DNA from: a virus
Strand: one strand, 5' to 3'
IMG/VR virus record: IMGVR_UViG_3300033171_000037
Length of the DNA: 16,047 nt
A program made the translations under genes and the position numbers. Positions within the stretch are counted from its first letter, which is position 1. Each line of letters starts with the position of its first letter. Shown here in pieces: positions 1 to 16,047 of this stretch. The notes beneath the pieces were generated by a model, which ran no database searches, was not told the DNA's origin, and saw nothing but the letters and a program-made list of their open reading frames with translations.

Positions 1-1128
1 TCAGGCTGATGTGGATCGGATAGTCCAGGACCGGCTCGCCCGTGAGAAGACGAAATACGAAGAGCTGGAGGCCGAACGGGACGCCTTGAAAGACAAGGTG
101 GCCGAGTACGAAAAGACCTCCCTGGACTCTCTGAAGACGAAGATCGCCACCGACCTGAAACTCCCTCCGGCCCTGGCCAGCAGACTGGCGGGGACGACCG
201 AGGCGGAGCTGAAGGCAGACGGCGAGAAGCTGCTGAAAGAGATCGGACCCAAAGAGCCTGTGGGCGGCGGTGGCAATCCAGCGGGCGAGGTAAAGAAACC
301 TCTCACTCGCGAAGCTGTGAAGGCCATGAAGCCAGACGAGATCATCGCAAACATGGACCAGATCAAGAGCCAGATGAAAGAAGGCTCATTGAGGTAAAAT
401 CGCATGGCATTAACGAATTTCATAGGGGAGGTTTGGGCCGCCCAAATCCTCCAGAGTCTCCAGAAGTCTATGGTCTACGGTCAGGCCGGAGTAGCAAACA
501 GAGACTACGAAGGTACCATCCGGGGCAAAGGCGACACGGTGAGGATCACCGCCCACGGTCCGATAACGATCGATAACTACGACAAGACCACGGGGATAGG
601 CGACCCTGAAGACCTCGACGACGCTTCAACCACGCTGGAAATAACTCAGGCGAAGTACTTCAACTTCAGAATCGACGACATAGACAAGGCGCAGATGAAC
701 GTTAAGCTGATGGAGAGCGCCACAAGAGACGCGGCCTACCAGCTTGCAGACGTGGCCGATCAGTACATAGTCGCCCAGATGGTAGCGGGTGCCGGGAACG
801 CTGTGGGGGCGGATGGATCTGACAAGATCTTTGACGGAACCACCGACCTTGTAACCGAGGAGCTTCTGTCAGTCAAACAGCTTCTCGATGAAGACAACGT
901 ACCCTCTGAAGGCCGGTTTGTGGTGTTTCCGCCTTGGGTTATCAAGTGGCTTCTCCAGGAAGACGCAATCGTTAACCCCACGTGGTCCGGTGTGGAGAAG
1001 GCCATGTTGAACGGCGAGATCGCGAAGCTTTTCGGCTTCAGTATCCTTCAGTCCAACAACGTACCGAACACGGCGGGCGACCACTACAAGGTCGTTGCTG
1101 GAGTGGCGAGGGCGACGACTTTCGCCGA
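1..1128. repeat. Terminal redundancy, copy 1 (identical to 14920-16047; offset 14,919 bp)
   Basis: The window starts with tcaggctgatgtggatcgga, which recurs at 14920. The window ends with ttcgccga, which matches 1121-1128. The ORF track gives identical translations for both copies. The repeat ends fall inside the scaffold and capsid genes. Confidence 0.95.
2..397 (+). CDS. Scaffolding protein, 5'-truncated by the window edge (duplicate of 14921-15316)
   Basis: Same sequence as the complete copy at 14888-15316. It is charged, helical and Lys/Glu-rich, has a GGGG linker, and sits immediately upstream of the major capsid gene. Stop TAA at 395-397. Confidence 0.6.
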   Translation, partial: QADVDRIVQDRLAREKTKYEELEAERDALKDKVAEYEKTSLDSLKTKIATDLKLPPALASRLAGTTEAELKADGEKLLKEIGPKEPVGGGGNPAGEVKKPLTREAVKAMKPDEIIANMDQIKSQMKEGSLR

Positions 1129-1258
1129 CTCTGTGAATGAGACCGAAGCGTACCGACCTGAGAAATTCTTTGCGGATGCACTGAGGGGTCTGCACTGCTA
1201 CGGCGCAAAGGTCGTTGATCCTGACTGCCTGTGCGTTCTGACCTGTGCTCCAAGCTGA
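404..1258 (+). CDS. Major capsid protein (HK97-fold, P22-coat-like family by eye)
   Basis: 284 aa, with GAGG 9 nt upstream of the ATG. The N-terminus MALTNFIGEVWAAQILQSL...GKGDTVRI and the overall length and layout resemble small-phage coat proteins. It lies between the scaffold and connector genes. Confidence 0.8.
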   Translation: MALTNFIGEVWAAQILQSLQKSMVYGQAGVANRDYEGTIRGKGDTVRITAHGPITIDNYDKTTGIGDPEDLDDASTTLEITQAKYFNFRIDDIDKAQMNVKLMESATRDAAYQLADVADQYIVAQMVAGAGNAVGADGSDKIFDGTTDLVTEELLSVKQLLDEDNVPSEGRFVVFPPWVIKWLLQEDAIVNPTWSGVEKAMLNGEIAKLFGFSILQSNNVPNTAGDHYKVVAGVARATTFADSVNETEAYRPEKFFADALRGLHCYGAKVVDPDCLCVLTCAPS

Positions 1259-1269
1259 GGTGATCCAAG

Positions 1270-1650
1270 ATGGTAAGATCTGAAATCACAGTAAATGAGT
1301 TGGCCGGGGCATGGGCCGACAGAGAGACGCCCGACGCGATCGATAAGGGCAACGGCCACGTCATCGCCGCTGGAGCCAACTTCAAGAGGCTTCTGATCCT
1401 CGTCCACATCTCGGCGGGGACGGGAACCGGCGGTGCTGTGACTCTGAAGGCTGGAACCGCTCGCCCTGCCTTTCGGCGGAGTCTCGGCGACTTTGTGAGA
1501 GGAGACGACGTAGTCGCCAACGATGAGTTCTGTATCGGCCCGATCGAGACGGCTCGATACCTCCAGGCAGACGGAACGATTCACATCGACATCACCGACA
1601 CCACGGGAACCAACATCGCCGGAACGATCGAGGCCTACGCACTGCCTTGA
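1270..1650 (+). CDS. Hypothetical capsid-associated protein (possible decoration or accessory protein)
   Basis: 126 aa, with SD GAGGTGAT at 1256-1263. It directly follows the capsid gene. I recognise no motif. Confidence 0.5.
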   Translation: MVRSEITVNELAGAWADRETPDAIDKGNGHVIAAGANFKRLLILVHISAGTGTGGAVTLKAGTARPAFRRSLGDFVRGDDVVANDEFCIGPIETARYLQADGTIHIDITDTTGTNIAGTIEAYALP

Positions 1651-1681
1651 AAATATCACGATGGTTAAGCCATAACAACGA

Positions 1682-1708
1682 GGGGCCGCTCTTCGCACCG
1701 GCGGCCCC
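1682..1708 (+). terminator. GC-rich hairpin between the capsid genes and the connector genes (possible attenuator)
   Basis: GGGGCCGC (1682-1689) pairs with GCGGCCCC (1701-1708) across an 11-nt loop. Only a weak T run follows (ctccttt). Confidence 0.4.
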
Positions 1709-1734
1709 CACAGCTCCTTTAGGAGGTATTTTTC

Positions 1735-2226
1735 ACGGCTGAATATGTAACATCCTCAGAAGTTGATAGTTACGTAGCCGATAGACCCGACTCCTCGGCC
1801 TGGACCGGCGCATCCTCAGCAGATAAGGAAGATGCTCTGAAGTACTCTTCTAAGATCGTCGACTCGCTCCCCTTTGTGGGTAAGAAATATGAGACCGACA
1901 TCTCCACCCAGCCCCTCCAGTGGCCGCGATCGATCAAGACGCGCCGGGGATGGGTGATCTCTGACCTTGATGCTGATGGAAACGTGATGGTTCCACAGGC
2001 GATCAAAGATGCAGTCTGTGAGGAGATCCTGGCGAGACTAAGCACAGAGAACGCGGGCCGCCGAAAACTCCAGCGTGGTGGGGTCAAATCATTCAAGCTC
2101 TCCGAGGTATCCGAGACCTTCGACAGATCGCTTCAAGGTGGTGGAGTCCTGGGGGCTCCCCTGTGGTCCTGGACGGCTTACAGGCTGCTGGAACCCTATC
2201 TGGCGAAAGGGGCGCGGGCTCGATGA
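1735..2226 (+). CDS. Head-tail adaptor (gp6-like / DnaT-like head-tail connector); 5' end uncertain
   Basis: The frame is open from 1723. The translation AEYVTSSEVDSYV...ADKEDALKYSSKIVDSLPFVGKKYETDISTQPLQWPR matches the usual N-terminal layout of this adaptor family. AGGAGG lies at 1721-1726. There is no in-frame ATG, GTG or TTG before GTG 1876, so ACG 1735 is proposed as the start. TGA 2224-2226 overlaps the next ATG. Confidence 0.6.
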   Translation, partial: TAEYVTSSEVDSYVADRPDSSAWTGASSADKEDALKYSSKIVDSLPFVGKKYETDISTQPLQWPRSIKTRRGWVISDLDADGNVMVPQAIKDAVCEEILARLSTENAGRRKLQRGGVKSFKLSEVSETFDRSLQGGGVLGAPLWSWTAYRLLEPYLAKGARAR

Positions 2227-2819: not shown

Positions 2820-2820
2820 C

Positions 2821-2852: not shown

Positions 2853-2913
2853 GTTAAACAATTCGTTTAACCTGGCATAGATATTTAACCGATCGTTTAA
2901 CAATTAGTTAAAC
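2853..2913. promoter_or_regulatory. Promoter and operator of the RHH gene: two inverted heptad pairs around a TATA-like box
   Basis: The first pair is GTTAAAC-aattc-GTTTAAC (2853-2871). ATATTTAA follows at 2881-2888. The second pair is GTTTAAC-aatta-GTTAAAC (2895-2913), which abuts ATG 2914. There is no SD. Confidence 0.6.
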
Positions 2914-3387
2914 ATGCCATTCTTAGGGGTCAAGATCTCAGAGGAGCTGGAGACCCTGATCGACGAAGAGGTTAAACGCTCCGATAAGTCCAAAAGCGAC
3001 ATCGTGAGAGATGCGTTAAACCAATATTTTAACGTCGCGATCCCTGAAGGTACAGGCCTAATAGTATTAGATAAAAAAGAGCTTATAAATCTGATTGATA
3101 GCAGACTAGGAGTTAAACCAGAAGTTAAACGCGAGGTTAAACTGATCCCAGAAGTTAAACCAAAAATTAAACAGGACGTTAAACCGGTTAAACAAGATGT
3201 TAAACCAGAGGTTAAACCCACAATTCAGAGGTTATCCGAGGACTCAGCAACACAAGAGAAAATCAAAGAGCTGTGGAGGAGTGGGGAGCGGAACCGACAG
3301 GCAATAGCTCAGCAGGTAGGATACAAGAATCGAACAGTCCAGCAGTACATCAAAGACTGCCTGGAAAGCGGCGAGCTGGAGAAATAA
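2914..3387 (+). CDS. RHH (CopG/Arc/MetJ-like) - repeat linker - HTH DNA-binding protein
   Basis: The N-terminus MPFLGVKISEELETLIDEEVKRSDKSKSDIVRDALNQYF has the strand-helix-helix pattern of RHH domains. The middle is VKPEVKREVKLIPEVKPKIKQDVKPVKQDVKPEVKP repeats. The C-terminus IKELWRSGERNRQAIAQQVGYKNRTVQQYI is HTH-like. Confidence 0.75.
   Translation: MPFLGVKISEELETLIDEEVKRSDKSKSDIVRDALNQYFNVAIPEGTGLIVLDKKELINLIDSRLGVKPEVKREVKLIPEVKPKIKQDVKPVKQDVKPEVKPTIQRLSEDSATQEKIKELWRSGERNRQAIAQQVGYKNRTVQQYIKDCLESGELEK
3112..3217 (+). repeat. Array of GTTAAAC heptads (8 exact copies and 1 near copy) inside the RHH gene
   Basis: Exact copies start at 3112, 3124, 3136, 3154, 3178, 3187, 3199 and 3211. A near copy ATTAAAC starts at 3166. 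Spacing is mostly 12 bp. Confidence 0.9.
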
Positions 3388-3420
3388 GTCGAGGAGCGAC
3401 GGAGATAGAACGGCTGGATT

Positions 3421-4221
3421 TTAGCATATCAGCTTGCTCTGTAATCCACTTTTTTGTGAAGATTTCCGGACTAAGTTATAAAGTTTAATGTTTTTTATAG
3501 AGATTTCTTCGAAATTGGGATTATCCTCGAATTCGATTAAATATATTTTATTTGCATCGATTGGCTTTACAGCGATTGGACAACAGGTAATTCCCGGGAA
3601 ATATTGCCTTGCATATTTAACCAAATTTGATATTTGAACCCATCCAATCATATCACGTGCGTCCGGACCCTTAGCTTCAATTGGTATAATATACTCGTTT
3701 CCATCGGTATCCACACCCACATAGAGATCATCTACCTCTACTTGACCTTCTTCCCTAATTGTGGTCCTAATATGCGACTGGAGATGAAAGCAAGTTATTC
3801 CGGTAAAAACATCAATAAGTCTATTATATCGTATACATGATAAAAGAGCTTGCTCATCGTTTGTAGAATATTTCTCTACAATCTCAGGTAAAGAATTTAG
3901 AATATCGATAGATGTTAGTCCCTCTTGTATTGTTAGATGCGGGGAGCGGCTTATCTTGCAAAACGCAAATTTTCCCTTCCCTTTAGGTGCAATAATCCAA
4001 TTGCCTTTATCAAGTATGGTCTTTGGCAGCGGTCGTCTCGATCGGTAGGTATAAATTATATCCGGAATATTTCTAATAGTTATGTTGAGATCGTTCGCCA
4101 CTTTAGCGACGTCATCTTTATCAAAATTAATAATATCTTCGCCCCCACAATCTGCTAATTTAGCCTGAAACAATTCTATAAGAATTTTATCATATTTTGT
4201 TTCGTTGTTTAAAGTAGTCAT
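3421..4221 (-). CDS. Putative Type II restriction endonuclease (PD-(D/E)XK-like)
   Basis: 266 aa. It lies 11 nt downstream of the methyltransferase gene on the same strand, and its SD GAGGT overlaps the methyltransferase stop. The candidate catalytic signature is VEVDDLYVGVDTDGNEYIIPIEAKG (D...E-x-K). It has the same low GC as the methyltransferase gene. Confidence 0.5.
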   Translation of the reverse strand: MTTLNNETKYDKILIELFQAKLADCGGEDIINFDKDDVAKVANDLNITIRNIPDIIYTYRSRRPLPKTILDKGNWIIAPKGKGKFAFCKISRSPHLTIQEGLTSIDILNSLPEIVEKYSTNDEQALLSCIRYNRLIDVFTGITCFHLQSHIRTTIREEGQVEVDDLYVGVDTDGNEYIIPIEAKGPDARDMIGWVQISNLVKYARQYFPGITCCPIAVKPIDANKIYLIEFEDNPNFEEISIKNIKLYNLVRKSSQKSGLQSKLIC

Positions 4222-4232
4222 TTAGGTCAACC

Positions 4233-5573
4233 TCAATCATTTTTAAGTATCAACACATTTTCATCTATGTTCATTTTTGTTGCTGTAGCTATTCTCGTGC
4301 GCCAAAGTTCGATACCCATGACATTATACCCTAGTGATCCAGCAATGTCCGCAATTAATTCGGCGGTTGGTATATAAACTCTGAAAAAAGACATTTGGTC
4401 ACCAAGGACATAAGCTAACTTAGCATCCTCTGATAAATATGGTTTTAGGCTCTTTAAATGGAGATACATTCCTCCAAAATAATGACGGACGATTTTGTGA
4501 TACATCTTTTCGAATCCTGAAGTTTTATTCAGATATATTCTTTTCTTCTCGATTTCATCTGCTATTTCTGTGATTTTACTATATTCTGCAATACAGTTAC
4601 CATCAACGTCTTTCGCAAAAATATTTCTAGAGTTGCTCCGTAGAAGATCCTCTTTAACGTTCCTTAAATCGCGCTTATTATTGATAAAATCAAGTAAAAT
4701 ACTCTCTAATCTGGTACTTCTCGTATAATCCTTTTCATTTGGGTATGGTGGGGAAGTTATAACGCAATTAATCTGTCCCATCAGTTCCTCTGGCAGACAT
4801 TTATCGATTTTACGTGCGTCCCCTTTGATAATTTTTGAGTTATCAATGCCACTGAATCTCGATACATCTTCGATCATTTGTTGAGTATTAGCTACGTAAT
4901 AATCCAATGCATTAATGTCTTCTTTCGGTTTAGTCCGATAAATCTCCGGGCCAAAAGCTATATTTCCTGCTCGATTTATAATTAAATTTGCTAATGAAAG
5001 TTTAAAAAATGATCGTATTTCGTCATCCTCAATCGAATCAATAACTTTTTTTAGTATTAAAACTTTATTTAACGGCACATCACTTATAAACCCCTTTGGT
5101 AGTATCTTTTGTTTTTCGCTTTTGAGTGTAGGTATAGAATCGACAACAAATAAGTTTAAATTCGTTTTTGGCTCGATTATCGAACGATTATCAGCAATAT
5201 AAAGTTTTTTATAAGACAACAGTGAAGAATTATAAATATAACCTAAATAATTGTGAAGATCCTCTACGTCCAGCATCATATTCGTCTTAACTTTTGCGGC
5301 AAAATATGCAACCGGATTTGCCTCAATTCCATAATTTGGTATATTACTTTTTAAGCATTCTACATTTGTTGTTCCGGTTCCACAAAAAGGATCCAAAACG
5401 ATAGCGTTATGTGAGATATTGAATTTATTTAAATACTGTGTGACTAGATGAGGTGGATATCCCAATACGAATTGATACCACCCGTGTATAGGTAAATCTG
5501 ACATACATATTTGGTTTTTCCCTCCGTTAGATCTTCTGCCAAGGTTACTTTTTTTAACCCCTATGCTTGCCAC
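4233..5573 (-). CDS. DNA N4/N6 amino-methyltransferase (motif order X-I...IV, alpha-like)
   Basis: Motif I is LDPFCGTGTT (aa 60-69). Motif IV is TSPPY (aa 273-277, nt 4743-4754). HGWYQFVLGYPPHLV is motif-X-like. The GTG start at 5573 is preceded by GAGGTG. An alternative start is ATG 5504. Confidence 0.85.
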   Translation of the reverse strand: MASIGVKKSNLGRRSNGGKNQICMSDLPIHGWYQFVLGYPPHLVTQYLNKFNISHNAIVLDPFCGTGTTNVECLKSNIPNYGIEANPVAYFAAKVKTNMMLDVEDLHNYLGYIYNSSLLSYKKLYIADNRSIIEPKTNLNLFVVDSIPTLKSEKQKILPKGFISDVPLNKVLILKKVIDSIEDDEIRSFFKLSLANLIINRAGNIAFGPEIYRTKPKEDINALDYYVANTQQMIEDVSRFSGIDNSKIIKGDARKIDKCLPEELMGQINCVITSPPYPNEKDYTRSTRLESILLDFINNKRDLRNVKEDLLRSNSRNIFAKDVDGNCIAEYSKITEIADEIEKKRIYLNKTSGFEKMYHKIVRHYFGGMYLHLKSLKPYLSEDAKLAYVLGDQMSFFRVYIPTAELIADIAGSLGYNVMGIELWRTRIATATKMNIDENVLILKND

Positions 5574-5806
5574 TTATACGCACCTCATTATACTCCCCAT
5601 TAGATGTACTAAACGTTGACCCCTCAACTTGACCGCAGGGTTTGATATAACAAGAACGTATTATACATTAGAGGGGCACACGCAGGCAAACACAATAAAC
5701 ATCACATCCCTATGTGATGTTGTAACTTGTCAAGCCCATTTGCTTGCTATGCCCCATGCACTTAATAACGAATACCGATTAATTCAGGAAGAAAACTGGA
5801 AATAAA

Positions 5807-5822
5807 CCGAGACATGTCTCGG
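5807..5822. repeat. 16-bp perfect palindrome CCGAGACATGTCTCGG, copy 1
   Basis: Read directly from the sequence. An identical copy lies at 5991-6006. The upstream flanks share TTCAG...AACTGG. Confidence 0.9.
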
Positions 5823-5855
5823 TCTCGGCTTGGCAAAACCAAGACAAGATAGCGA

Positions 5856-5901
5856 TTTTCTCTTTTGTTTATATATATTTTTCGTATATATATCTATATC
5901 T
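5856..5901. other. AT-rich TATA-repeat tract between the twin palindromes
   Basis: The sequence is ttttctcttttgtttatatatatttttcgtatatatatctatatct, and it includes TTTATATA at 5868-5875. Confidence 0.7.
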
Positions 5902-5990
5902 CCGACTAGATAATGTTACATTTTATCAGATGATCGTCACATCTGATGATCTGATTTTTAGCTGCTAGTGATTCCTTCAGAGAACTGGGA

Positions 5991-6006
5991 CCGAGACATG
6001 TCTCGG
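5991..6006. repeat. 16-bp perfect palindrome CCGAGACATGTCTCGG, copy 2
   Basis: Identical to 5807-5822. It lies 10 nt downstream of the stop of the minus-strand gene at 6016-6546. Confidence 0.9.
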
Positions 6007-6015
6007 TTTAAGTTC

Positions 6016-6546
6016 CTAAACTAATCTGATGAGATGACGTTGTTTATGGCGAGGATCTTTGATGACCTGGAAACGATGATCGTCGTCCAATAGCGGTTCT
6101 AATCGATTGATATGCCGTTTTGTCACTCCAAGAAGGCGAGCGGCGTCTTTCGTTGTGGTCTGACGCATCCTAAGCCGTTTCATCTCTGAGAAAAGGCGGT
6201 CCAGGTGGTCGGATGCGGTCTTTTGACTGAGAGCGGGGGCCGGGGCTTCGAGCTTGCTGATCCTCTGGCGATCGTATGCTCTTTCGAGGGCGGCCTCTTC
6301 CCGGAAGGTGTCCAGCTCCACCCTGAGCTTGTGGATCTCTTCTTCCTGGCGCTGGATGTCTCTCTGTCGTTGCTGGGAGATGCACTGGAGCCGGTGAATC
6401 TCATCCTCCTGCTGCTGGAGGACCTCGGCTAAAAGATGCTTAATTCTCGGGACGTCATCGAAAAGCTTATCCGCCAGAAGGGCCATGTTATCCTTGGTCG
6501 AGGACCGGCCTCTGGCATCCGCTAGGGGTTGGTCTACTAATTCCAT
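6016..6546 (-). CDS. Coiled-coil protein with a C-terminal HTH (excisionase/AlpA/MerR-like); candidate regulator
   Basis: 176 aa, with SD GAGGTGAT 6 nt upstream of the ATG. The HTH-like segment is TTKDAARLLGVTKRHINRL. It carries an internal repeat QEDEIHRLQ / QEEEIHKLR. It is transcribed divergently from 6702-7097. Confidence 0.6.
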   Translation of the reverse strand: MELVDQPLADARGRSSTKDNMALLADKLFDDVPRIKHLLAEVLQQQEDEIHRLQCISQQRQRDIQRQEEEIHKLRVELDTFREEAALERAYDRQRISKLEAPAPALSQKTASDHLDRLFSEMKRLRMRQTTTKDAARLLGVTKRHINRLEPLLDDDHRFQVIKDPRHKQRHLIRLV

Positions 6547-6701: not shown

Positions 6702-7097
6702 ATGGCTACGCCGAAGATCATTTACGAAACCACAAGCGGGGAGGAGATCAAGGCCTTGCGAGAGGAGGCCCGGAAGCTGCGAGACGAGGCAGCGAAGCTC
6801 CGGCAGTTCCGGGGAATGGAACCGGCGGCGAGGGAGAGGGAGGCGGAGGCGGCCAGGCTGGAGGGCGAGGCCGAGGACCTGTGGAGCGCGGCGCGGTTGG
6901 AGGCGTTGACGGTCTACCTCGGCCCGGTGGAGAAGATCACCGCGAAGGGGCCGAAGACGTATGAGTACTATTTCGCGTCCTGGAAGATGGGGGATAAGGT
7001 CGTCAATAAGTACATCGGCTCTCCTCGGAAGATGACCCAAAAGGCGGCCACAGAGAAGGCCCGCCAGCTGAAGGCGGAGGCGCTGGCAGTTCTGTGA
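6702..7097 (+). CDS. Hypothetical coiled-coil protein
   Basis: 131 aa with a charged helical N-terminal half. The C-terminal segment GPKTYEYYFASWKMGDKVVNKYIGS is of unknown function. The start looks leaderless. Confidence 0.6.
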   Translation: MATPKIIYETTSGEEIKALREEARKLRDEAAKLRQFRGMEPAAREREAEAARLEGEAEDLWSAARLEALTVYLGPVEKITAKGPKTYEYYFASWKMGDKVVNKYIGSPRKMTQKAATEKARQLKAEALAVL

Positions 7098-7143
7098 TAT
7101 CTTCCAGATTTGGGCGTGAAATATAACAGAACTATCATCAAGG

Positions 7144-7186
7144 AGCTTCGGAAGTGAAGCTTCTCCAACTCTTCTCTCTTTTTTCT
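7144..7186 (+). terminator. Weak hairpin followed by a T-rich run
   Basis: AGCTTC (7144-7149) pairs with GAAGCT (7156-7161), followed by cttctctcttttttct. Confidence 0.3.
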
Positions 7187-7498: not shown

Positions 7499-7532
7499 AA
7501 AAACGACCCATGGCGGGCGAAGGAGGGTAACT

Positions 7533-7562: not shown

Positions 7563-7907
7563 ATGCCTGGAGCGAAATTCGCCCCAATATTGGTCGAATG
7601 CAAAAACTGCGGCCACGAATGGATGTATGGCGGGCAGTCGATGTACTACTGCACATGTCCTGTATGCCACTACAAAAACCTCGTCCCTCTATTTGGTGAG
7701 AGGTGGCATGTTGCAATGGCGCGGTTGGCACAACTGATGAGTGAAAGCGGTATATCTCCAGCTGATGAGTATAAGCACGCCAATTATGTAATATCATTCA
7801 TAAGACGGCTACTAAAAGAGGACGGACTCGATGATTGGCGCGCGGGGCTTGAGACTGACTTGGAGGAGATGAAAAGACGAAGAGCCGAGGCAAAGGCCAT
7901 GATGTAG
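7563..7907 (+). CDS. Zinc-ribbon protein
   Basis: 114 aa. CKNCGH...(18 aa)...CPVCH is a four-Cys ribbon pattern near the N-terminus. Confidence 0.65.
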   Translation: MPGAKFAPILVECKNCGHEWMYGGQSMYYCTCPVCHYKNLVPLFGERWHVAMARLAQLMSESGISPADEYKHANYVISFIRRLLKEDGLDDWRAGLETDLEEMKRRRAEAKAMM

Positions 7908-8277: not shown

Positions 8278-10859
8278 CCCTCCCCCCGAAGCCTACGGCC
8301 CTTGAAGTCTGGCATCGGAACGCACCCGCTGCCCTGAAGGAGGTCGAAGGCTGGATTCTGTGGAAATATACCCCCGTCAATGGAAAATGGACCAAACCCC
8401 CATTTAACGAGGACGGGAAAAAGATCGACGCCCACGACCCCACAGAATGGATGACCTTTTCCCAGGCAGTCCAGGCCTACCAGCGGGGCGGATTCGACGG
8501 GATCGGGCTCTCTCTCAATGCTATGGAGGCTCTCGCCGGCGTCGACCTCGACCATTGCGTCAAGGGAGGGGAGATCGAGCCGTGGGCGCTGAAGATCGTC
8601 GAGGAGCTGGGAAGCTACGTTGAGATCTCACCGAGCGGTGAGGGGCTCCGAATACTGGGATATGGAAAGCTTCGCCGAGAGGGGCGCAAAAAGGGCAATG
8701 TGGAGGTCTACGATGGGGGCAGGTATCTCACCTTCACCGGCCACAGGCTGGATAGCGCAACCTCTGATATAGAGGACTTCGACGAGGCACTCAATCGAGT
8801 ACACCACCGGATATGGGCCGAGAACCCGAAGATCCCCATCCTCCAAAGCAATGGGGGCGAGGTGGGTGGTGATCTGGCCGAGAGATTCGCAGCCCTCTGC
8901 GATGATGACCCGAAATTTAAGGATAGATACTATTCTCCCGCGAGTGTCGGTGATAGATCTGATCACGAGTTCCACCTCTGCGCCCGGCTATGGGAAGAGG
9001 GGTTCTCCGAGTCTGAGATCAGATCTTTGATGGATTCGTCCCCCCAGGAGAAATGGAGAGAGAGGGGCGCCGACGACTACAGGGACACCACGATCAGAAG
9101 AGCTATTCAATCAGCAGCGGCGCCGAAGGGGAACAGAGGGGCCGAGGGGGCGAGACAGGTCTCCGAGGAGGAGCTCGCCACCATGAAGATGGACAACGGC
9201 CCCAAATTCAAGCTTAATCTACCTGGGAACCACTACTTAACCCGTTATATCGCATACGGGCGGGACGTCTCCGATGCTTATCCCGACTACTGGCTCGCCG
9301 GGGGGCTCTATCAACTGGCCGTGATCGCCGATAAGAAGATATGGGTCAAGCTGAGGCAGGGGACGATCTATCCTAATCTCTACATCTTCGTGGCGGGTAA
9401 ATCCGGACTCAGCCGAAAGACTACAATCATCGACGTCTCCGAGTCTCTCCTCAACGACCACAGGCCGGGGACGGCTGTGAACGCGGTCCCGACGGAGTTC
9501 TCGCCGGAGGCCTTCATCGAGCACCTCGACGCAAGCCCTCATGCCCCATGGGTCAGAGATGAAGCTGCCGGGGTTCTAAAGGCCATGAAACGGGACTACA
9601 TGAGGGGCTTCAAAGATTCGCTGATGCAGTTGTACGATTGCAGACCCATTCATCGAAAGCTTCGGACAAACCGGCGGTCGAAGAGTAAAACCGACTTTGT
9701 AGTGGACGACCCCTATCTCAACGTCCTGTGGGCGACGACGGACTCATCATTAGCGGCCAACACCGAGATCAACGACACCCTAAGCGGCTTCATGGCGAGG
9801 TTCATCTATCACTTTCCGAGGAGGCCTAAAGAGCGATGGCTCCCCCTCGAAGAGGGTGAGGCGATGAACTCCGAGCTGGAGCTCGTCGTCAGGGGCCAAC
9901 TGACGGCTATGGTGAACAAGGTCGCCGAGATGCCGGGGCGCCAACTCAAATTCAGCCCAGAGGCGGCCCAGTACTGGAGCGAATGGCAACTACAGAGAGC
10001 GAGGGAGATCGAGAAGCGGGACGACGCCAACGAGATGCAGATACACAGCCGACTGGTTCCGTTGGTGGCGAAACTGGCGATGCTCTTCGAGCTCGGATCT
10101 TCGGATTTTGATCCGGGATGGCCTCGGCCCATAGGGGTGGGATATGTCGTCGAGGCGTGCAGGCTTGTGGACGAATATTATCAGCCCATGGCCATGGCCG
10201 TCTATGACATGGTAGGCCGGGACCTGGAGAAGAACGTGATCGACCGGATCATAGCGTTTTTGAAGAGGCATGGTGGCGTTTCTACCAAGCGGAAAATATC
10301 CAGGCATGTGAAGATCAAGGCGAGGGAGCTCCAGGAGTATCTCGATACCATGGTCGGGGACGGAACCATCGAGTACTGTGAGATCCAGAACCCCAGGGGC
10401 GAAGCTACGATCAAGGTCGTCCTTAGTGTCGATACTGTATATACAGTCAATAAAGTCATATCTGTCAATACTGTCACTCGTAACACTGAGGATCGAGAGG
10501 ATAATCGTAACACTAAATCTGAAGATAAATTATCTTCTTGTGGGGAAGGTGTTACAGAGGAAGGCCGCAAACTAGGTGACAGTGAATACCCCTGTGACAG
10601 TGGTGACAGTTCCGACAGATTGACAGTATGCCCACCCCCGCAGCCCCCAAAGCCAAAAGCGGCAACAGCTACCGAAAAGACCGAGCCGCCGAGGATATTC
10701 AACCTGAGCATCCCCTACTATCTGGACCTGGGAGGAGGTCAACTCCCCACCGTGAAAGCCCTGATGAAAGATCAGAACTGGCCACAGGATAAGGCAGTAA
10801 TGGCTATCGGGATGCTGGAGCAACAGGGATATTCGAGAGGGTTTAATTGTCCTGATTAG
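8274..10859 (+). CDS. Replication protein: AEP prim-pol domain, PriCT-like helical region, DUF3987/helicase-like NTPase, wHTH and a repeat-rich C-terminal tail
   Basis: 861 aa. The AEP motifs are GVDLDHC (D91/D93), YVEISPSGEGLRILG and NVEVYDGGRYLTFTG. EFHLCARLWEEGFSESEIRSLM is PriCT-like. FVAGKSGLSRKTT and PWVRDEAAG are NTPase-like. ISRHVKIKARELQEYLDTMVGDGTI is wHTH-like. Confidence 0.85.
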   Translation: MTLPPKPTALEVWHRNAPAALKEVEGWILWKYTPVNGKWTKPPFNEDGKKIDAHDPTEWMTFSQAVQAYQRGGFDGIGLSLNAMEALAGVDLDHCVKGGEIEPWALKIVEELGSYVEISPSGEGLRILGYGKLRREGRKKGNVEVYDGGRYLTFTGHRLDSATSDIEDFDEALNRVHHRIWAENPKIPILQSNGGEVGGDLAERFAALCDDDPKFKDRYYSPASVGDRSDHEFHLCARLWEEGFSESEIRSLMDSSPQEKWRERGADDYRDTTIRRAIQSAAAPKGNRGAEGARQVSEEELATMKMDNGPKFKLNLPGNHYLTRYIAYGRDVSDAYPDYWLAGGLYQLAVIADKKIWVKLRQGTIYPNLYIFVAGKSGLSRKTTIIDVSESLLNDHRPGTAVNAVPTEFSPEAFIEHLDASPHAPWVRDEAAGVLKAMKRDYMRGFKDSLMQLYDCRPIHRKLRTNRRSKSKTDFVVDDPYLNVLWATTDSSLAANTEINDTLSGFMARFIYHFPRRPKERWLPLEEGEAMNSELELVVRGQLTAMVNKVAEMPGRQLKFSPEAAQYWSEWQLQRAREIEKRDDANEMQIHSRLVPLVAKLAMLFELGSSDFDPGWPRPIGVGYVVEACRLVDEYYQPMAMAVYDMVGRDLEKNVIDRIIAFLKRHGGVSTKRKISRHVKIKARELQEYLDTMVGDGTIEYCEIQNPRGEATIKVVLSVDTVYTVNKVISVNTVTRNTEDREDNRNTKSEDKLSSCGEGVTEEGRKLGDSEYPCDSGDSSDRLTVCPPPQPPKPKAATATEKTEPPRIFNLSIPYYLDLGGGQLPTVKALMKDQNWPQDKAVMAIGMLEQQGYSRGFNCPD
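10434..10627. repeat. Intragenic block of iterons and palindromes (candidate origin)
   Basis: Elements in order: palindrome ACTGTATATACAGT (10434-10447); ACTGTCAC (10470-10477); TCGTAACACT twice (10478-10487 and 10505-10514); palindrome GAAGATAA-a-TTATCTTC (10521-10537). GTGACAGT occurs three times (10576, 10594, 10603), with degenerate copies at 10613 and 10620. Confidence 0.6.
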
Positions 10860-11322: not shown

Positions 11323-12527
11323 CCTTCCAAGTCCCTGTGGGGAAACAGCGGGACTTCTGCCTTCACTCCGACGCCCGGGTCAACCTCGCCCACGGGGCGG
11401 TCAGATCAGCGAAGACCGTCGGGGCCAACGTCCGATGGTTGCGGGCTGTCCTGGAGGCTCCGAGAGACGTTAACCTGCTGATGACCGGGAAGACGTTGAC
11501 GAGCCTGGAGCGAAACGTCCTCCTCCCCATCTCGAAGCTCGTCGGGCCTGACAACTTCGAATACCGGCGGTCCCTGAAGGTCGCCACCATCTACGGGCGG
11601 CCTATCCTCTGTGAGGGTGCCAATGACGAGGCGGCCTATGCGAAGATCGCAGGCCTCACCCTCGGAGGGGCTCTCGTCGATGAGGGCTCCCTAACCCCTG
11701 AGAGCTTCTTTAACATGCTGATCTCTCGTCTCTCGGAGCCCGGCTCCCAGCTCTTCTTAACCACGAATCCCGGCAACCCCGGACACTTTTTAAAGAAACG
11801 ATGGATAGACCGAGAGGGCGAGCTGGACCTCAAGACATGGCATTTCGAGTTGACAGATAACCCCTGGCTGGATCCCGTATACGTCGCTGAGCTGAAGCGC
11901 CAGTTCGGGCCGAGAGGCTCCCTCTTCTATCAGAGGTACATCGACGGCTTGTGGGTGGCTGCTGAGGGCGCCGTTTACCGCAACTTCAACCGAGATCTTC
12001 ACTGCATCCCCCGCCTTCCCGATGGTCGGATCGAGGAGATGAGAGTCGCTGTGGACCCTGGCGCCACCCACCCCACAGCGATGCTGAAAGCGTACCGGCT
12101 AGCCGATAAATGGTACATCGCTGGAGAGTACCGCAAGGCCGACAAGTCCCCGGCTGAGGTCTCGAAGGATCTGAAGAAATTCCTGGCTGGGATGTACCCG
12201 ACCTCGATCGACGTTGACCCGGCGGCCAAAGCTCACCGGCTCCAGTTTGTGGGGGATGGGATCGAGGGCGTCCAGCAGGCAGACAACGACGTCCTCAACG
12301 GGATCCAGAAGGTGATCAACGCCTTCGACCAGGGCTGGCTCTACCTCGTCGGCTGCCCCATGCTGGCCGAGGAGCTGGAAGGCTACCGATGGGACCCCAA
12401 AGCCACCGAGCGGGGCGAGGACGCGCCCATCAAAGAAGACGACGACCTCGCCGACTGCCTTCGCTACCTGGTCAACAGGATCAGCAAGAGCCGCCGAGTT
12501 ACCGATTTTAGGAGGCCTTCAAGATGA
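11319..12527 (+). CDS. terL: Terminase large subunit
   Basis: 402 aa. The GTG start overlaps the terS stop (GTGA) and follows GAGGAGGTGGAGG. The motifs are Walker A-like GAVRSAKT, Walker B GGALVDEGS, the coupling motif LTTNPG, and nuclease acidic motifs VAVDPG and EDDDLADCLRY. Confidence 0.9.
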   Translation: MTFQVPVGKQRDFCLHSDARVNLAHGAVRSAKTVGANVRWLRAVLEAPRDVNLLMTGKTLTSLERNVLLPISKLVGPDNFEYRRSLKVATIYGRPILCEGANDEAAYAKIAGLTLGGALVDEGSLTPESFFNMLISRLSEPGSQLFLTTNPGNPGHFLKKRWIDREGELDLKTWHFELTDNPWLDPVYVAELKRQFGPRGSLFYQRYIDGLWVAAEGAVYRNFNRDLHCIPRLPDGRIEEMRVAVDPGATHPTAMLKAYRLADKWYIAGEYRKADKSPAEVSKDLKKFLAGMYPTSIDVDPAAKAHRLQFVGDGIEGVQQADNDVLNGIQKVINAFDQGWLYLVGCPMLAEELEGYRWDPKATERGEDAPIKEDDDLADCLRYLVNRISKSRRVTDFRRPSR

Positions 12528-13894
12528 CCGTATTCACCACGTTAGATTTTCTCAAACCCGGCCAGAAGTGGCCGCCAGACAAAGACCGGCTGGCTCGATA
12601 CGCAAAGAACCGGCTGCTGATGGAAGGAGACCACGATTTGGTCTTCGCCGGATTGAATGAGGACGACGCCCCCCGGATCATCAAGATGAGGGTCAACTGG
12701 TTCAAGAGGATCTGCACCCTCTTCTCCGATCTAGCTGTGGGGAACCCACCGAAGATCACCGCCGAGGATCAGGCCACGGTGGACAGGATCGCCGACGATA
12801 ACGGCTTCGAGACCCTGGCTTACGACCTCTTCAGCGACCTGATCGCCTTCGGTGATGGGGTCCTCAAGCCTCGATGGGATGGGAAGCGCGGGGTCATCAG
12901 TCGGATCGATCCCCGCCACTGGTTCCCGGTGGTGGACCCCGACGACTCCGGGGCGTTCTCGGCTCACGTTCTGGCCTGGGAGGTCCCCTTCGGCGATGAC
13001 AAGTACGTCAAGGTGGAGATCCACAAGCCCGGAAAGATCGAGCACAGGCTCTTGAAGCTCACCTCTGATGGTAAGGAGATCAAAGAGCCCGTCCCCCTGG
13101 CCACCATCGAGAGGTACTCCAGCCTGAAAGAAGAGGAGGAGACCGGCGTTGCTGGTTTCCTGGTCTTCCCCTTCTCCAACCTGAAGGCCGGGAACGGCGT
13201 CTTCGGGCTGGACGACTTCAAAGACATCTCCGACCTTGTGGAGGAGATCGAGAGGAGGCTGATTAAGGTCTCGGGGACTCTGGACGTCTTCGCCGATCCC
13301 TGGATGTGCGGGCCGTCGGGGCTTAGGGTCCGAGACCCTCTCACCGGCGAGGTCGTGTGGGCTTCCGATGAGAAGTACATCGCCCTTAACGAGGGCGAGT
13401 CCCCGCCAAAGATCCTAACCTGGGATGCTGAGATGGAGGCCACGTTCCGACAGATCGAGACCCTTCTCTCTCAGCTCTACGTCATGGCAGAACTCTCCCC
13501 GGCTGCCTTTGGTGAGACAAAGAACGGGCTCGCCGAGTCGGGAAGCGCCCTCAAGAGGTTGATGCTCCCCACCCTGGCGAAGGTTAACCGGCTGAGGCTC
13601 AGGATCAGGCCGAAGCTCATCGAGGTCCTCAAGACCACAGCAGAACTCGAGGTTGCATCCAGGATGAGCGGGGCTCAGAAGCTCACCACCGTCTCCCTGG
13701 AGTGGAGATCAGCCCTTCCCGTTGATCCTGTGGAAGCGGCCAACGTCGAAAAAACAAAGCGCGACGCCGGAGTCACGTCTCGCCGGTCCAGCATATCCAG
13801 GCTGATGGAAGGCGCATCAGAGAAGGACATCGACGCCGAAGTCGCCAGTATCGAGGAGGAAGAGGACCTCTTCAAGCGTGAGATAATGGTATGA
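12524..13894 (+). CDS. Portal protein
   Basis: 456 aa. An ATGA overlap couples it to terL, and AGGAGG lies upstream. Its size and its position between terL and the MuF-like gene fit a portal. Confidence 0.8.
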   Translation: MTVFTTLDFLKPGQKWPPDKDRLARYAKNRLLMEGDHDLVFAGLNEDDAPRIIKMRVNWFKRICTLFSDLAVGNPPKITAEDQATVDRIADDNGFETLAYDLFSDLIAFGDGVLKPRWDGKRGVISRIDPRHWFPVVDPDDSGAFSAHVLAWEVPFGDDKYVKVEIHKPGKIEHRLLKLTSDGKEIKEPVPLATIERYSSLKEEEETGVAGFLVFPFSNLKAGNGVFGLDDFKDISDLVEEIERRLIKVSGTLDVFADPWMCGPSGLRVRDPLTGEVVWASDEKYIALNEGESPPKILTWDAEMEATFRQIETLLSQLYVMAELSPAAFGETKNGLAESGSALKRLMLPTLAKVNRLRLRIRPKLIEVLKTTAELEVASRMSGAQKLTTVSLEWRSALPVDPVEAANVEKTKRDAGVTSRRSSISRLMEGASEKDIDAEVASIEEEEDLFKREIMV

Positions 13895-14796
13895 GACAGC
13901 TCACTATCGAAGAGATCAGGACCCTAACCGACTTCCAGAAGCGGTTAAAGCTCGGCATAGTCACGAACCCCACAGCGAAGGGGCGGGCGCTCCTCATGTC
14001 CATCTCCCTGGATGTGGAGGACGTGGCCTCTATGCCGCTCCGAGACCTGGCTTACTACATGGCCGCCTATAACGAAGGAATCCCGGTGGAGGTCGTGTCT
14101 CGTCTCGTCCGGGAAAAGGACCCCCTGGTTGAGAAATTCGAGCGGCGGCTGTGGTCGGATATGGCTGATCCCAGCTCGAAATATTATCTCGGCCTCCCCT
14201 ACAAAAACCAGGCAGAGGCCACCATCCACAAGCTCGAAGGACTGGACCTCTACGCATCCTTCCCATCAAAACGAGAACTCGATCCCCTGGTTGACGAGTA
14301 CCTCTCGAAGCGCGGCGGGGCCTTCATCAAGTCTGTGGGGGCTTCTGGCCGAAATGAAGTACGTCGAATCCTGATCGAGTCATATCGAGAGACCGGAACA
14401 TGGGAAGCTTTTGATAAGAAGTTCAGAGAAGAGTTCAGCTATTTACAGCGCTGGAAACGATACCAGATTTACCGAACAGAGCACGCCCTCGCCTCCAATT
14501 CAGCTTATTTCAACATCGCAGATCAGATAGAAGCGATAGATGGGTTCAATATCATTTTAGGGCCTCGCCCCTGTCCGTGGTGTCAGTTCATGGCCTCGTT
14601 TACGCACACCAGGGGAGAGGATAGGCCCCCTTATCATCCGTCGTGTCAGTGCCTTCCCTCGCCCGTTTTCAAGGGGGTGGGTGGTCGTCTAGGCCGCAAG
14701 GTCGATTCTGATGCACTGAGTTTCATGAAGGAAAATGAATACTTGAGGCTGAAACAAAATTACGCAACCTTCCAAACCGCTACAGCTATTTCATAA
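13891..14796 (+). CDS. Minor head protein, Mu F / SPP1 gp7 family
   Basis: 301 aa. An ATGA overlap couples it to the portal gene. It carries the signature RPCPWCQFMA...DRPPYHPSCQCLPSP (P-x-H-P-x-C-x-C). Confidence 0.85.
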   Translation: MRQLTIEEIRTLTDFQKRLKLGIVTNPTAKGRALLMSISLDVEDVASMPLRDLAYYMAAYNEGIPVEVVSRLVREKDPLVEKFERRLWSDMADPSSKYYLGLPYKNQAEATIHKLEGLDLYASFPSKRELDPLVDEYLSKRGGAFIKSVGASGRNEVRRILIESYRETGTWEAFDKKFREEFSYLQRWKRYQIYRTEHALASNSAYFNIADQIEAIDGFNIILGPRPCPWCQFMASFTHTRGEDRPPYHPSCQCLPSPVFKGVGGRLGRKVDSDALSFMKENEYLRLKQNYATFQTATAIS

Positions 14797-14814
14797 GCTA
14801 TTCTACAAAAAGGA

Positions 14815-14828
14815 CAAAGCTTTAAATA
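14815..14828 (+). promoter_or_regulatory. BRE/TATA-like promoter of the scaffold-capsid-connector operon
   Basis: CAAAGC (14815-14820) is followed by TTTAAATA (14821-14828). This is the same CAAAGC plus TTTAWATA arrangement seen upstream of terS. Confidence 0.45.
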
Positions 14829-14887
14829 CTATCCCGATAAGAATATACAATTAGGCAAACGAGGCCGTAAACTCGGAGATCGTGAAT

Positions 14888-15316
14888 ATGTCCGGCGATG
14901 ATGGTGAAAAGAAATTTACTCAGGCTGATGTGGATCGGATAGTCCAGGACCGGCTCGCCCGTGAGAAGACGAAATACGAAGAGCTGGAGGCCGAACGGGA
15001 CGCCTTGAAAGACAAGGTGGCCGAGTACGAAAAGACCTCCCTGGACTCTCTGAAGACGAAGATCGCCACCGACCTGAAACTCCCTCCGGCCCTGGCCAGC
15101 AGACTGGCGGGGACGACCGAGGCGGAGCTGAAGGCAGACGGCGAGAAGCTGCTGAAAGAGATCGGACCCAAAGAGCCTGTGGGCGGCGGTGGCAATCCAG
15201 CGGGCGAGGTAAAGAAACCTCTCACTCGCGAAGCTGTGAAGGCCATGAAGCCAGACGAGATCATCGCAAACATGGACCAGATCAAGAGCCAGATGAAAGA
15301 AGGCTCATTGAGGTAA
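14888..15316 (+). CDS. Scaffolding protein (complete copy)
   Basis: I prefer ATG 14888 (GGAG 9 nt upstream) to the track's GTG 14882. The protein is 142 aa, charged and helical, and lies upstream of the capsid gene. Confidence 0.65.
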   Translation: MSGDDGEKKFTQADVDRIVQDRLAREKTKYEELEAERDALKDKVAEYEKTSLDSLKTKIATDLKLPPALASRLAGTTEAELKADGEKLLKEIGPKEPVGGGGNPAGEVKKPLTREAVKAMKPDEIIANMDQIKSQMKEGSLR

Positions 15317-16047
15317 AATCGCATGGCATTAACGAATTTCATAGGGGAGGTTTGGGCCGCCCAAATCCTCCAGAGTCTCCAGAAGTCTATGGTCTACGGT
15401 CAGGCCGGAGTAGCAAACAGAGACTACGAAGGTACCATCCGGGGCAAAGGCGACACGGTGAGGATCACCGCCCACGGTCCGATAACGATCGATAACTACG
15501 ACAAGACCACGGGGATAGGCGACCCTGAAGACCTCGACGACGCTTCAACCACGCTGGAAATAACTCAGGCGAAGTACTTCAACTTCAGAATCGACGACAT
15601 AGACAAGGCGCAGATGAACGTTAAGCTGATGGAGAGCGCCACAAGAGACGCGGCCTACCAGCTTGCAGACGTGGCCGATCAGTACATAGTCGCCCAGATG
15701 GTAGCGGGTGCCGGGAACGCTGTGGGGGCGGATGGATCTGACAAGATCTTTGACGGAACCACCGACCTTGTAACCGAGGAGCTTCTGTCAGTCAAACAGC
15801 TTCTCGATGAAGACAACGTACCCTCTGAAGGCCGGTTTGTGGTGTTTCCGCCTTGGGTTATCAAGTGGCTTCTCCAGGAAGACGCAATCGTTAACCCCAC
15901 GTGGTCCGGTGTGGAGAAGGCCATGTTGAACGGCGAGATCGCGAAGCTTTTCGGCTTCAGTATCCTTCAGTCCAACAACGTACCGAACACGGCGGGCGAC
16001 CACTACAAGGTCGTTGCTGGAGTGGCGAGGGCGACGACTTTCGCCGA
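14920..16047. repeat. Terminal redundancy, copy 2 (identical to 1-1128)
   Basis: Same evidence as copy 1. This is consistent with wrap-around of a circular 14,919-bp molecule. Confidence 0.95.
15323..16047 (+). CDS. Major capsid protein, 3'-truncated duplicate of 404-1128
   Basis: Identical to the first copy, and cut by the window end. Confidence 0.8.
   Translation, partial: MALTNFIGEVWAAQILQSLQKSMVYGQAGVANRDYEGTIRGKGDTVRITAHGPITIDNYDKTTGIGDPEDLDDASTTLEITQAKYFNFRIDDIDKAQMNVKLMESATRDAAYQLADVADQYIVAQMVAGAGNAVGADGSDKIFDGTTDLVTEELLSVKQLLDEDNVPSEGRFVVFPPWVIKWLLQEDAIVNPTWSGVEKAMLNGEIAKLFGFSILQSNNVPNTAGDHYKVVAGVARATTFA

Follow-up and report, generated by a model that had tools for sequence, protein, structure and literature searches.

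What kind of genetic element encodes a viral head and the machinery to fill it with DNA, but no tail? This question is raised by IMG/VR record IMGVR_UViG_3300033171_000037, a stretch of 16,047 nt (hereafter 'the window', whose numbering is used for all coordinates) that carries a 14,919-bp unit of this type. An initial annotation of the DNA likened the unit to the phage-inducible chromosomal islands of bacteria that form their own capsids (cf-PICIs), because it has its own capsid, packaging and connector genes and lacks tail genes. A head-only, tail-borrowing lifestyle has so far been described only in bacteria, and our full-text literature searches found no description of archaeal capsid-forming satellites of tailed viruses. 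On balance, we favor the interpretation that the window represents an archaeal, independently evolved and plasmid-like counterpart of a cf-PICI, which would take its tails from a helper virus. The evidence that leads to this interpretation, and the evidence that argues for other explanations, is described below.

A complete circular unit carrying head and packaging genes

Bases 1-1128 of the window are identical to bases 14920-16047 (0 mismatches), and the scaffold gene is open across the resulting unit junction. Exact look-ups with the window proteins recovered the same 14,919-bp unit at 100% identity from independent metagenomes, including contigs of 23,962 bp (JGI 3300037528) and 22,154 bp (JGI 3300033165) that cover 1.6 and 1.48 units, respectively. 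The clone is also present in JGI 3300033173 and in three ENA assemblies, for a total of six samples (three JGI and three ENA), and its copies in these samples are flanked by unit sequence alone, with no foreign flanks. The exact wrap-around and the independent multi-unit contigs demonstrate that the element is a closed circle or a head-to-tail concatemer and not a fragment. The window is therefore the complete genome of a small mobile element, as had been proposed for the 14,919-bp unit at the outset.

Genes were assigned by searches with Pfam and PHROGs, plus NCBIfam and PADLOC (Table 1). Together with an hhalign comparison of the closure protein described below, the Pfam and PHROGs matches recover the full head and packaging set that the initial annotation had listed, comprising TerS, TerL, portal, MuF, scaffold, capsid protein, a small capsid-associated protein, adaptor and closure protein. 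Every structural ORF is intact in the window. The TerS candidate overlaps the start of the TerL gene by 4 nt and its position is kept in 31 loci, while the scaffold is found in 66 related loci. Usable pairs for a comparison of the clone with its relatives, which neither the scaffold nor the 126-aa protein yielded, were available for nine genes or gene segments: TerS, TerL, portal, MuF, prim-pol, the capsid and closure proteins, and both segments of the adaptor. Their ratios of nonsynonymous to synonymous substitution rates (dN/dS) range from 0.07 to 0.25. These values indicate that the head module is maintained by selection in the absence of tail genes.

Consistent with the initial annotation, none of the four libraries gave a match in the window to a tail, lysis or integrase family. 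Specifically, genes for a tail tube or sheath, tape measure, tail knob, tail tip or fibers are found neither in the window nor in close relatives. No transmembrane segments are predicted in ORFs outside the known genes and their shadows, and searches of the window for tRNAs and Rfam RNAs found none. There is also little room for additional genes, as evident by the sizes of the two largest non-coding stretches (442 and 465 bp), which agree with the earlier estimate of about 440-465 bp for unassigned sequence.

These findings bear on the possibility that the window derives from a larger tailed-virus genome, either as a fragment or through mis-assembly, or else is a dead prophage remnant. Metagenomic contigs of this size are often incomplete, and its capsid, terminase and portal genes are those usually seen in tailed viruses. 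However, the exact self-closure, the independent assemblies that go round the circle 1.5-1.6 times and the purifying selection in every measurable gene or segment all contradict this explanation. So do the integrated relatives described below, which are bounded at 11-14 kb by an integrase, tRNA-His attachment (att) repeats and host genes, and the lack of tail genes in close relatives among the fetched IMG/VR or genome loci. Consequently, this explanation is already largely refuted, and we regard it as very improbable.

Table 1. Features of the 16,047-nt window and the main matches on which their assignments are based.
Feature	Coordinates	Strand	Matches and remarks
Wrap-around copy of 14920-16047	1..1128		Marks circular or concatemeric 14,919-bp unit
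Major capsid protein, 284 aa	404..1258	+	phrog_267 at 1.4e-61; Pfam Phage_capsid_4
Small jelly-roll protein (predicted fold), 126 aa	1270..1650	+	phrog_24894 (function unknown there); always adjoins capsid gene
Head-tail adaptor (Ad1/gp6-like)	1735..2226; canonical start 1876..2226 (116 aa)	+	Pfam DnaT_2; phrog_477 Ad1
Two-domain head-closure protein, 198 aa	2223..2819	+	N-terminal beta-sandwich of ~120 aa; C-terminal closure/stopper-like domain with CRWE motif
Ribbon-helix-helix (RHH)-linker-helix-turn-helix (HTH) DNA-binding protein, 157 aa	2914..3387	+	Pfam RHH_1
Type II restriction endonuclease, 266 aa	3421..4221	-	PADLOC REase_II PDLC03404 at E 1.3e-62, full length; GC 32-37%
Type II DNA methyltransferase, 446 aa	4233..5573	-	Pfam N6_N4_Mtase; phrog_18146 at 1e-33; PADLOC MTase_II at 1e-29
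Non-coding region, 442 bp	5574..6015		Two 18-nt palindromes ACCGAGACATGTCTCGGT at 5806 and 5990
176-aa protein, coiled coil and C-terminal HTH	6016..6546	-	Weak HTH_3 match; homologues in many family members
131-aa protein, function unknown	6702..7097	+	No family match; homologues at 57-92% identity in several relatives
114-aa zinc-ribbon protein, function unknown	7563..7907	+	Weak HypA-like zinc-ribbon match
Replication protein, 861 aa	8274..10859	+	N-terminal prim-pol (archaeo-eukaryotic primase, AEP) and DUF3987 helicase-type domain
Small terminase (TerS) candidate, 137 aa	10909..11322	+	N-terminal HTH: HTH_38/HTH_23
Large terminase (TerL), 402 aa	11319..12527	+	Terminase_3, Terminase_6C; phrog_2 at 8e-45
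Portal, SPP1 type, 456 aa	12524..13894	+	SPP1_portal at 3e-16; phrog_533 at 2e-39
MuF-like head morphogenesis protein, 301 aa	13891..14796	+	Weak PHROG head-morphogenesis matches
Head scaffolding protein, 144 aa	14882..15316 (= 1-397 in first copy)	+	Pfam DUF4355; phrog_233 at 3.5e-13

A family of free and integrated elements in Methanotrichaceae

Relatives of the capsid protein are encoded in 110 IMG/VR stretches, and no IMG/VR contig with a capsid protein that is at least 68% identical exceeds 21.4 kb. The units of this family span 11.9-14.9 kb and recur in Methanotrichaceae (Methanothrix/Methanocrinis), with self-overlapping members defining units of 11,923 bp (100% identity), 12,884 bp, ~14,710 bp and 14,068 bp. 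In long relatives the gene order is TerS, TerL, portal, scaffold, capsid protein, 126-aa protein, adaptor (~160 aa) and closure (~200 aa), and this order is kept across 45-95% protein divergence. Other genes vary among relatives, including those for MuF, integrases, a DUF4417 nuclease, an SDH-type protease, PD40 and HEAT repeat proteins, alternative primase-helicases and HNH proteins, but tail genes are not among them. With few exceptions, the virion genes of the members studied are limited to head, DNA-packaging and head-completion functions. The MuF gene lies 3′ of the portal gene in this clone and three relatives, and 3′ of the closure gene in most other members (e.g. L012, 3752-4525), and two distinct MuF families (Phage_Mu_F and Phage_min_cap2) are in use.

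Close relatives among species-representative genomes reside mostly in metagenome-assembled genomes of Methanotrichaceae/Methanothrix, whereas a few short contigs of relatives sit in bacterial bins and are probably mis-binned. One stand-alone contig of 14,527 bp (JARFPK010000054) in the assembly of Ca. Methanocrinis natronophilus has the same gene order and no integrase. Other relatives are integrated. On a 38.8-kb Methanotrichaceae contig (L090), a tyrosine integrase gene precedes a 13-kb element with genes for prim-pol, TerS, TerL, portal, scaffold, capsid protein, adaptor and closure, plus a short gene in the MuF position, and the element is followed by genes for leucyl-tRNA synthetase, an aminotransferase and the archaeal Hel308 helicase, where the GC content rises to 0.6. 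An integrase-bearing copy likewise lies at the end of a 99-kb contig (L109), and in another relative (L036) a tRNA-His gene adjoins the integrase gene.

An exact 19-nt copy of the tRNA-His 3′ end (L036 324-342; L198 13318-13336) is located in the 44-kb L198 contig ~13.3 kb downstream of the integrase gene and before host-type genes. This arrangement is a classical attL/attR pair, from which we estimate an element of ~13.8 kb, and none of the genes called inside it matched a tail family in Pfam. The initial annotation had found no integration function, which holds for the window itself, as it lacks an integrase and closes as a circle. Extended to the family, this statement fails, since relatives integrate at tRNA-His with tyrosine integrases. 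The four integrated relatives (L036, L090, L109 and L198) reveal that an integrase-less, episomal existence is a trait of the window and some relatives rather than of the whole family.

Three lines of evidence indicate an archaeal host, as was originally suspected: integration next to archaeal housekeeping genes on Methanotrichaceae contigs, genes shared with the Methanothrix harundinacea plasmid pH6Ac, and TATA boxes placed as for leaderless transcripts. On this sequence evidence, we assign the hosts of the family to archaea of the Methanotrichaceae. Whole-unit megablast searches gave no match among 50,697 phage records, and the sole match among plasmids is a 185-nt segment of pH6Ac.

Several members depart from the common organization. 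A sub-lineage with the smallest units (L085/L092; CAZNGI010000023.1, 20,991 bp) forms a perfect 11,923-bp repeat unit that encodes TerL, portal, scaffold, capsid protein, the 126-aa protein and MuF; adaptor, closure, TerS and prim-pol genes were not detected in it. In more distant members, with a capsid protein 50% identical to that of the window and a unit of ~14.7 kb (L075 11331-15630, also L073), the capsid gene is followed downstream by genes for two proteins with collagen repeats (683 and 502 aa); these members also encode a 285-aa protein with an adaptor-like domain and may form a head with fibers. A 21,390-bp contig (IMGVR_UViG_3300034686_000057; L025 and L030) holds two diverged tandem copies of an element at a spacing of 14,068 bp, with TerS proteins that are 90% and 67% identical to that of the window, and represents either strain-variant assembly round a circle or a true tandem. 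Finally, two ENA variants of the clone (L114 1-2528 and L116 1-1944, compared with window 11802-14919) are only 83-91% identical to the window across the TerL-portal-MuF region and 99.7-100% identical over 9 kb elsewhere, which suggests module exchange by recent recombination within the family.

The structural module ends at the head/tail boundary of a tailed virus

One relative outside the family is vir515 (Caudoviricetes sp., BK063672.1), a 36.5-kb tailed virus from a bioreactor whose host is given as Methanosarcinales. This virus carries, in the same order as the window, genes for the scaffold, the capsid protein (41% identity), a protein like the 126-aa protein, the adaptor (36%, the best match among all phage records) and a closure domain, and it also has homologous TerL (28%) and portal (26%) proteins. 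Unlike the window, vir515 continues after the closure gene with genes for the neck, the tail tube, the tape measure and the tail tip, is 2.4 times larger, and has a closure protein with a single domain (99 aa). Judged by gene order and homology, the structural module of the window is the vir515 series ending exactly after the closure gene, at the boundary between head and tail.

Viruses of the vir515 type also share samples with family members. Contigs encoding a capsid protein 98-100% identical to that of vir515 are present in nine IMG/VR samples, and five of these nine samples also hold family members (3300033169, 3300028601, 3300025713, 3300001592 and 3300010365).

A closure protein with an added domain and a small jelly-roll protein

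The 198-aa protein encoded after the adaptor gene has no family match, no tblastn match among all phage records and no meaningful result in a PDB profile search. However, hhalign pairs its C-terminal ~65 residues with the 99-aa protein encoded immediately after the adaptor in vir515 (probability 93%, E 2.9e-7), and this alignment is the decisive evidence for a closure role. The AlphaFold2 (AF2) model of the protein has two beta domains (pLDDT 84.7), and a Foldseek search of the PDB with this model yields the T1 stopper, the Pam3 neck and the FCWL1 head-to-tail interface as weak top matches, which we use as supporting evidence only. A full-library HMM search with the closure protein recovered 229 representative clusters, many of which are ~98 aa in length and match the C-terminal domain only, while the rest have two domains and 180-210 aa. 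From the alignment, the Foldseek matches and the HMM clusters, we conclude that the 198-aa protein is a head-closure protein with an added N-terminal beta-sandwich, and its earlier designation as 'head-closure-like' is thus substantiated. A distant two-domain homologue adjoins a DnaT_2 adaptor on a 20,853-bp contig (L201, JGI 3300064351) with a different capsid family (Pfam Phage_capsid); a 134-aa protein encoded there has a weak tail completion/Neck1 match, and this contig could be part of a tailed-virus genome or a further element with a head only.

The 126-aa protein is modeled by AF2 as a jelly roll (pLDDT 90) and matches uncharacterized Caudovirales proteins of 115-130 aa in BFVD (E 3e-7, TM 0.77). 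It is a capsid accessory that tailed viruses carry as well, probably a decoration or cement protein, and vir515 has a homologue at the same position. Neither of these two proteins is a cryptic tail component.

The added domain of the closure protein could nevertheless be viewed as an adsorption device. An autonomous minimal virus might have a tail-less or stub-necked head that is itself infectious, with the lectin-like N-terminal domain of the closure protein, the 126-aa protein or both serving for adsorption. Single-domain proteins of ~98 aa, including that of vir515, lack the extra beta-sandwich of ~120 aa; weak Foldseek matches of both small proteins include lectin and TNF-like folds; the lineage with neither adaptor nor closure gene is maintained as a perfect 11.9-kb repeat unit; and no helper has been identified. 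In opposition to this explanation, the homology of adaptor and closure to the proteins of a tailed virus implies docking to a tail, the fold matches of both models to PDB entries are weak, with E values no better than 6e-3, the 126-aa protein also occurs in ordinary tailed viruses, and the element has no membrane or lysis functions. Furthermore, we know of no tail-less infectious virion in prokaryotes that is built on an HK97-type capsid fold. We therefore consider an autonomous virus to be quite unlikely. A broader version is slightly less probable still, wherein the whole family would be a lineage of viruses that infect methanogenic archaea autonomously, lack a tail or have a stub neck and are built on an HK97-type fold, with a portal sealed by adaptor and closure proteins and with the lectin-like domain and the jelly-roll protein binding the Methanothrix surface such that no helper tail is needed.

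The adaptor gene has an altered start codon

The architecture of the adaptor gene presents a complication for any model that relies on tail joining. Its frame is conserved from position 1735 onwards (163 codons), where the codon is ACG and not ATG. The first canonical start is a GTG at 1876, and there is no in-frame start between these two positions. All relatives have ATG or GTG at the aligned position or at most three codons upstream, and the nearest one (L035) has ATG with an identical upstream context. By comparison, ACG is present in seven of the seven loci fetched for this clone, which come from six samples. A perfect AGGAGG ribosome-binding site at 1721-1726 precedes the ACG codon, and the frame upstream of the GTG codon is uninterrupted and conserved, with a dN/dS of 0.07. 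A PDB search with the adaptor gave no useful match. The original designation of the gene as a gp6-like adaptor stands on its matches to DnaT_2 and Ad1, although the gene start must be corrected as described above. Translation may begin at ACG, a truncated adaptor may be made, or the gene may have been newly inactivated in a clone that spreads like a plasmid.

The last of these options leads to the view that the element is essentially a plasmid or integrative island, whose head module is used in some other way (packaging like that of a gene transfer agent, or interference with infecting viruses) or is decaying in this clone. Its maintenance set, consisting of the prim-pol/helicase, the RHH protein and a restriction-modification addiction module, is compatible with this view, as are the genes shared with pH6Ac, the mutated adaptor start in all samples of the clone, and the wide distribution of the clone in circular form among several digesters. 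However, purifying selection acts on all measurable genes and segments, the structural ORFs are intact, and the adaptor frame upstream of GTG is still open and conserved at the dN/dS value noted above. An element-encoded TerS argues for specific self-packaging, and gene order is conserved across 45-95% protein divergence. These observations render the plasmid explanation unlikely in our estimation.

A proposed life cycle that relies on borrowed tails

If the window indeed represents a tail-borrowing satellite, its life cycle might proceed as follows. The element would persist as a plasmid-like circle replicated by its own prim-pol/helicase, while relatives would integrate at tRNA-His by using their tyrosine integrases. 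The restriction-modification pair would stabilize the element by addiction, defend the host, or both. The TerS/TerL encoded by the element would recognize its DNA and package it, by way of a portal that is also element-encoded, into a small capsid. This capsid would be assembled from the scaffold, capsid protein and MuF of the element itself, and the 126-aa jelly-roll protein probably decorates it. The adaptor and the two-domain closure protein would then seal the portal to give a DNA-filled, tail-less head, which would become infectious only with the tail of a vir515-type siphovirus residing in the same host. There is precedent for such a route, because cf-PICIs produce DNA-filled capsids with no tail, which are released and pick up free phage tails (10.1101/2025.02.11.637232). 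A T=4-like capsid would be expected from genomes of 12-15 kb, as the genomes of P4 and SaPI1 in T=4 capsids match the size of the 11.9-14.9-kb units (as cited in 10.1101/2025.06.18.659913).

Several observations weigh against this proposal. Loss of the ATG start in favor of ACG in every sample could mean that tail joining is reduced or lost in this clone. Moreover, the sub-lineage without a detectable adaptor or closure gene (L085/L092, 11.9 kb) fits poorly with strict tail docking. These two observations keep both the plasmid-centered and the autonomous-particle explanations alive. The co-occurrence with viruses of the vir515 type fits a helper relationship, but is confounded by a shared habitat (anaerobic digesters), and the vir515 proteins are only 26-41% identical to those of the window such that vir515 itself need not be the helper. 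In addition, tail and lysis proteins of archaeal viruses are poorly represented in profile libraries, although little unassigned coding space is left to accommodate them. More generally, helper dependence is deduced from genes.

Comparison with known satellites, plasmids and tail-less contigs

The cf-PICIs of Proteobacteria (EcCIEDL933 and KpCIDSM30104) resemble the window in many respects. They are 10-15 kb in length, have their own TerS, TerL, portal, capsid protein, adaptor and connector/closure, and carry no tail or lysis genes. They also encode a primase-type replication protein and defense-type cargo, and they integrate with a tyrosine integrase as do members of the family described here. 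The expected product is likewise a DNA-filled, tail-less small capsid (10.1101/2025.02.11.637232). The window itself combines its own capsid and packaging genes with adaptor and closure genes (the former with an ACG start) and has neither tail nor lysis genes in 14,919 bp.

Other characteristics set the two apart. A cf-PICI is a chromosomal island with an integrase and att sites that resides in a bacterial host, whereas the window is integrase-less, circular and assigned to an archaeal host, even though relatives L036, L090, L109 and L198 do have integrase or att features. The packaging operon of cf-PICIs is of the HK97 type with a prohead protease and HNH (10.1101/2025.02.11.637232), neither of which gave a match in the window with Pfam or PHROGs. 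The window instead encodes a portal of the SPP1 type, a scaffold of the DUF4355 family, MuF and a capsid protein that matches Phage_capsid_4. The different head ancestry and the archaeal host therefore identify the element as a convergent analogue and not a member of the cf-PICI family, and the similarity that was originally pointed out is supported as an analogy.

The window also differs from other established categories of elements. A complete tailed virus (Caudoviricetes) carries tail structural genes, which the window lacks. Plasmid-like maintenance genes are present as in phage-plasmids, but the virion set is head-only. A gene transfer agent is a head-tail gene cluster in the chromosome that does not replicate, packages random host DNA and is not itself transferred, whereas the element encodes a replication protein and a TerS of its own, is found in many samples as free circular units and lacks tail genes.

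Among plasmids, pH6Ac (NC_016637.1, 11,991 bp) is similar in size, circular and carries a DNA methyltransferase gene. It shares with the window an RHH-HTH protein (42% amino acid identity; 82% nucleotide identity over the 185-nt segment), and the 176-aa protein has, in its C-terminal 95 aa (HTH domain), 63% identity to a pH6Ac counterpart. However, no capsid or packaging genes are annotated in pH6Ac, and its 1,124-aa protein has no tblastn similarity to the window prim-pol.

Before the spindle-virus SRCE elements were described in 2025, only pSSVx and pSSVi were known as archaeal satellites (10.1101/2025.02.15.638363). Like the window, pSSVx/pSSVi (Saccharolobus) and SRCE elements (haloarchaea and nanohaloarchaea) combine plasmid-type replication with part of a virus morphogenesis module, and a helper is presumed (10.1101/2025.02.15.638363). 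They differ in that they parasitize spindle-shaped viruses that are unrelated to tailed viruses, and they encode at most a capsid protein and/or ATPase rather than a complete head-assembly and packaging machine. A 2026 preprint describes a different, capsid-less putative satellite of Asgard archaea.

Most small (≤20 kb), terminally repeated contigs with HK97-fold capsid proteins lack tail genes, and satellite lifestyles have been suggested for them (10.1101/2025.06.18.659913). The group highlighted in that survey is from the human gut and lacks portal and terminase genes, whereas the family described here, which the survey does not cover, has a full packaging machine, neck proteins and an archaeal host.

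If the family is of the type we propose, head-only parasitism of tailed viruses arose independently in Archaea, from a different head lineage. The family would then bring in a further, as yet undescribed level of interaction between viruses and their host, and of gene flow, in which the element studied here carries a restriction-modification system. Methanothrix is a dominant acetoclastic methanogen of digesters and wetlands. The family member in the assembly of Ca. Methanocrinis natronophilus, which we take to be a cultivated or enriched methanogen, offers an experimental entry point. Furthermore, the presence of free and integrated forms within one family bears on the interconversion of plasmids, satellites and viruses.

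Replication, regulators, cargo and non-coding regions

The prediction of a prim-pol/helicase replication protein is confirmed by a Pfam match to DUF3987 (1.8e-23), by PHROG primase families (1e-44) and by a PDB match of the prim-pol domain to the NrS-1 primase-polymerase (6a9w, E 9e-21). The initial annotation had also drawn an analogy to the pRN1 plasmid family. This analogy stands at the level of domain types, because RHH and prim-pol/helicase domains are present, and is one of functional likeness only. A PDB sequence search with the primase yielded NrS-1-type primases and one other primase, and not pRN1 ORF904, at E values up to 1. Within the 3′ part of the prim-pol gene, positions 10427-10476 hold five to six iteron-like 9-nt repeats (TGTCAATAC and variants) at a local dip in GC content, which may constitute a replication origin embedded in the replication gene.

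A low-GC island spans positions ~2900-6000 (32-42% GC compared with 55-61% for the backbone). The GC profile and the PADLOC and Pfam matches uphold the proposal that the restriction-modification pair is cargo located in this island. On the margin of the island, in the interval that separates the methyltransferase gene from the 176-aa gene, the two exact copies of ACCGAGACATGTCTCGGT are 184 nt apart and flank an AT-rich stretch with TATATATA repeats. Among the fetched loci this palindrome is restricted to copies of the clone, and the region may serve as an origin or operator.

Of the three small regulators envisaged by the initial annotation, only the 176-aa protein retains this status as a likely regulator, on account of its weak HTH match. 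The 131-aa and 114-aa proteins match no family, apart from the weak zinc-ribbon match of the latter. Archaeal-looking promoters had also been noted, and TATA-like boxes indeed lie ~27 nt before the ATG codons of genes that lead operons: TTTATATA is found ~27 nt before the TerS gene, TTTAAATA is 22 nt before the 114-aa gene, and a further box is ~27 nt before the 131-aa gene. Internal genes have GGAGGT/GAGGTG ribosome-binding sites. This box placement is that expected for leaderless archaeal transcripts.

The 465-bp stretch at 7098-7562 is probably non-coding and contains an 18-nt inverted repeat (7447-7506). We rejected a 108-aa ORF at 7154-7480 as a gene because it has no family match, shows no pattern of homologues and appears by eye to be of low complexity. 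The motif CCAATTGG, with a TATA-like box after it, occurs both at 7464 and at 7929, upstream of a 62-aa ORF and of the prim-pol operon.

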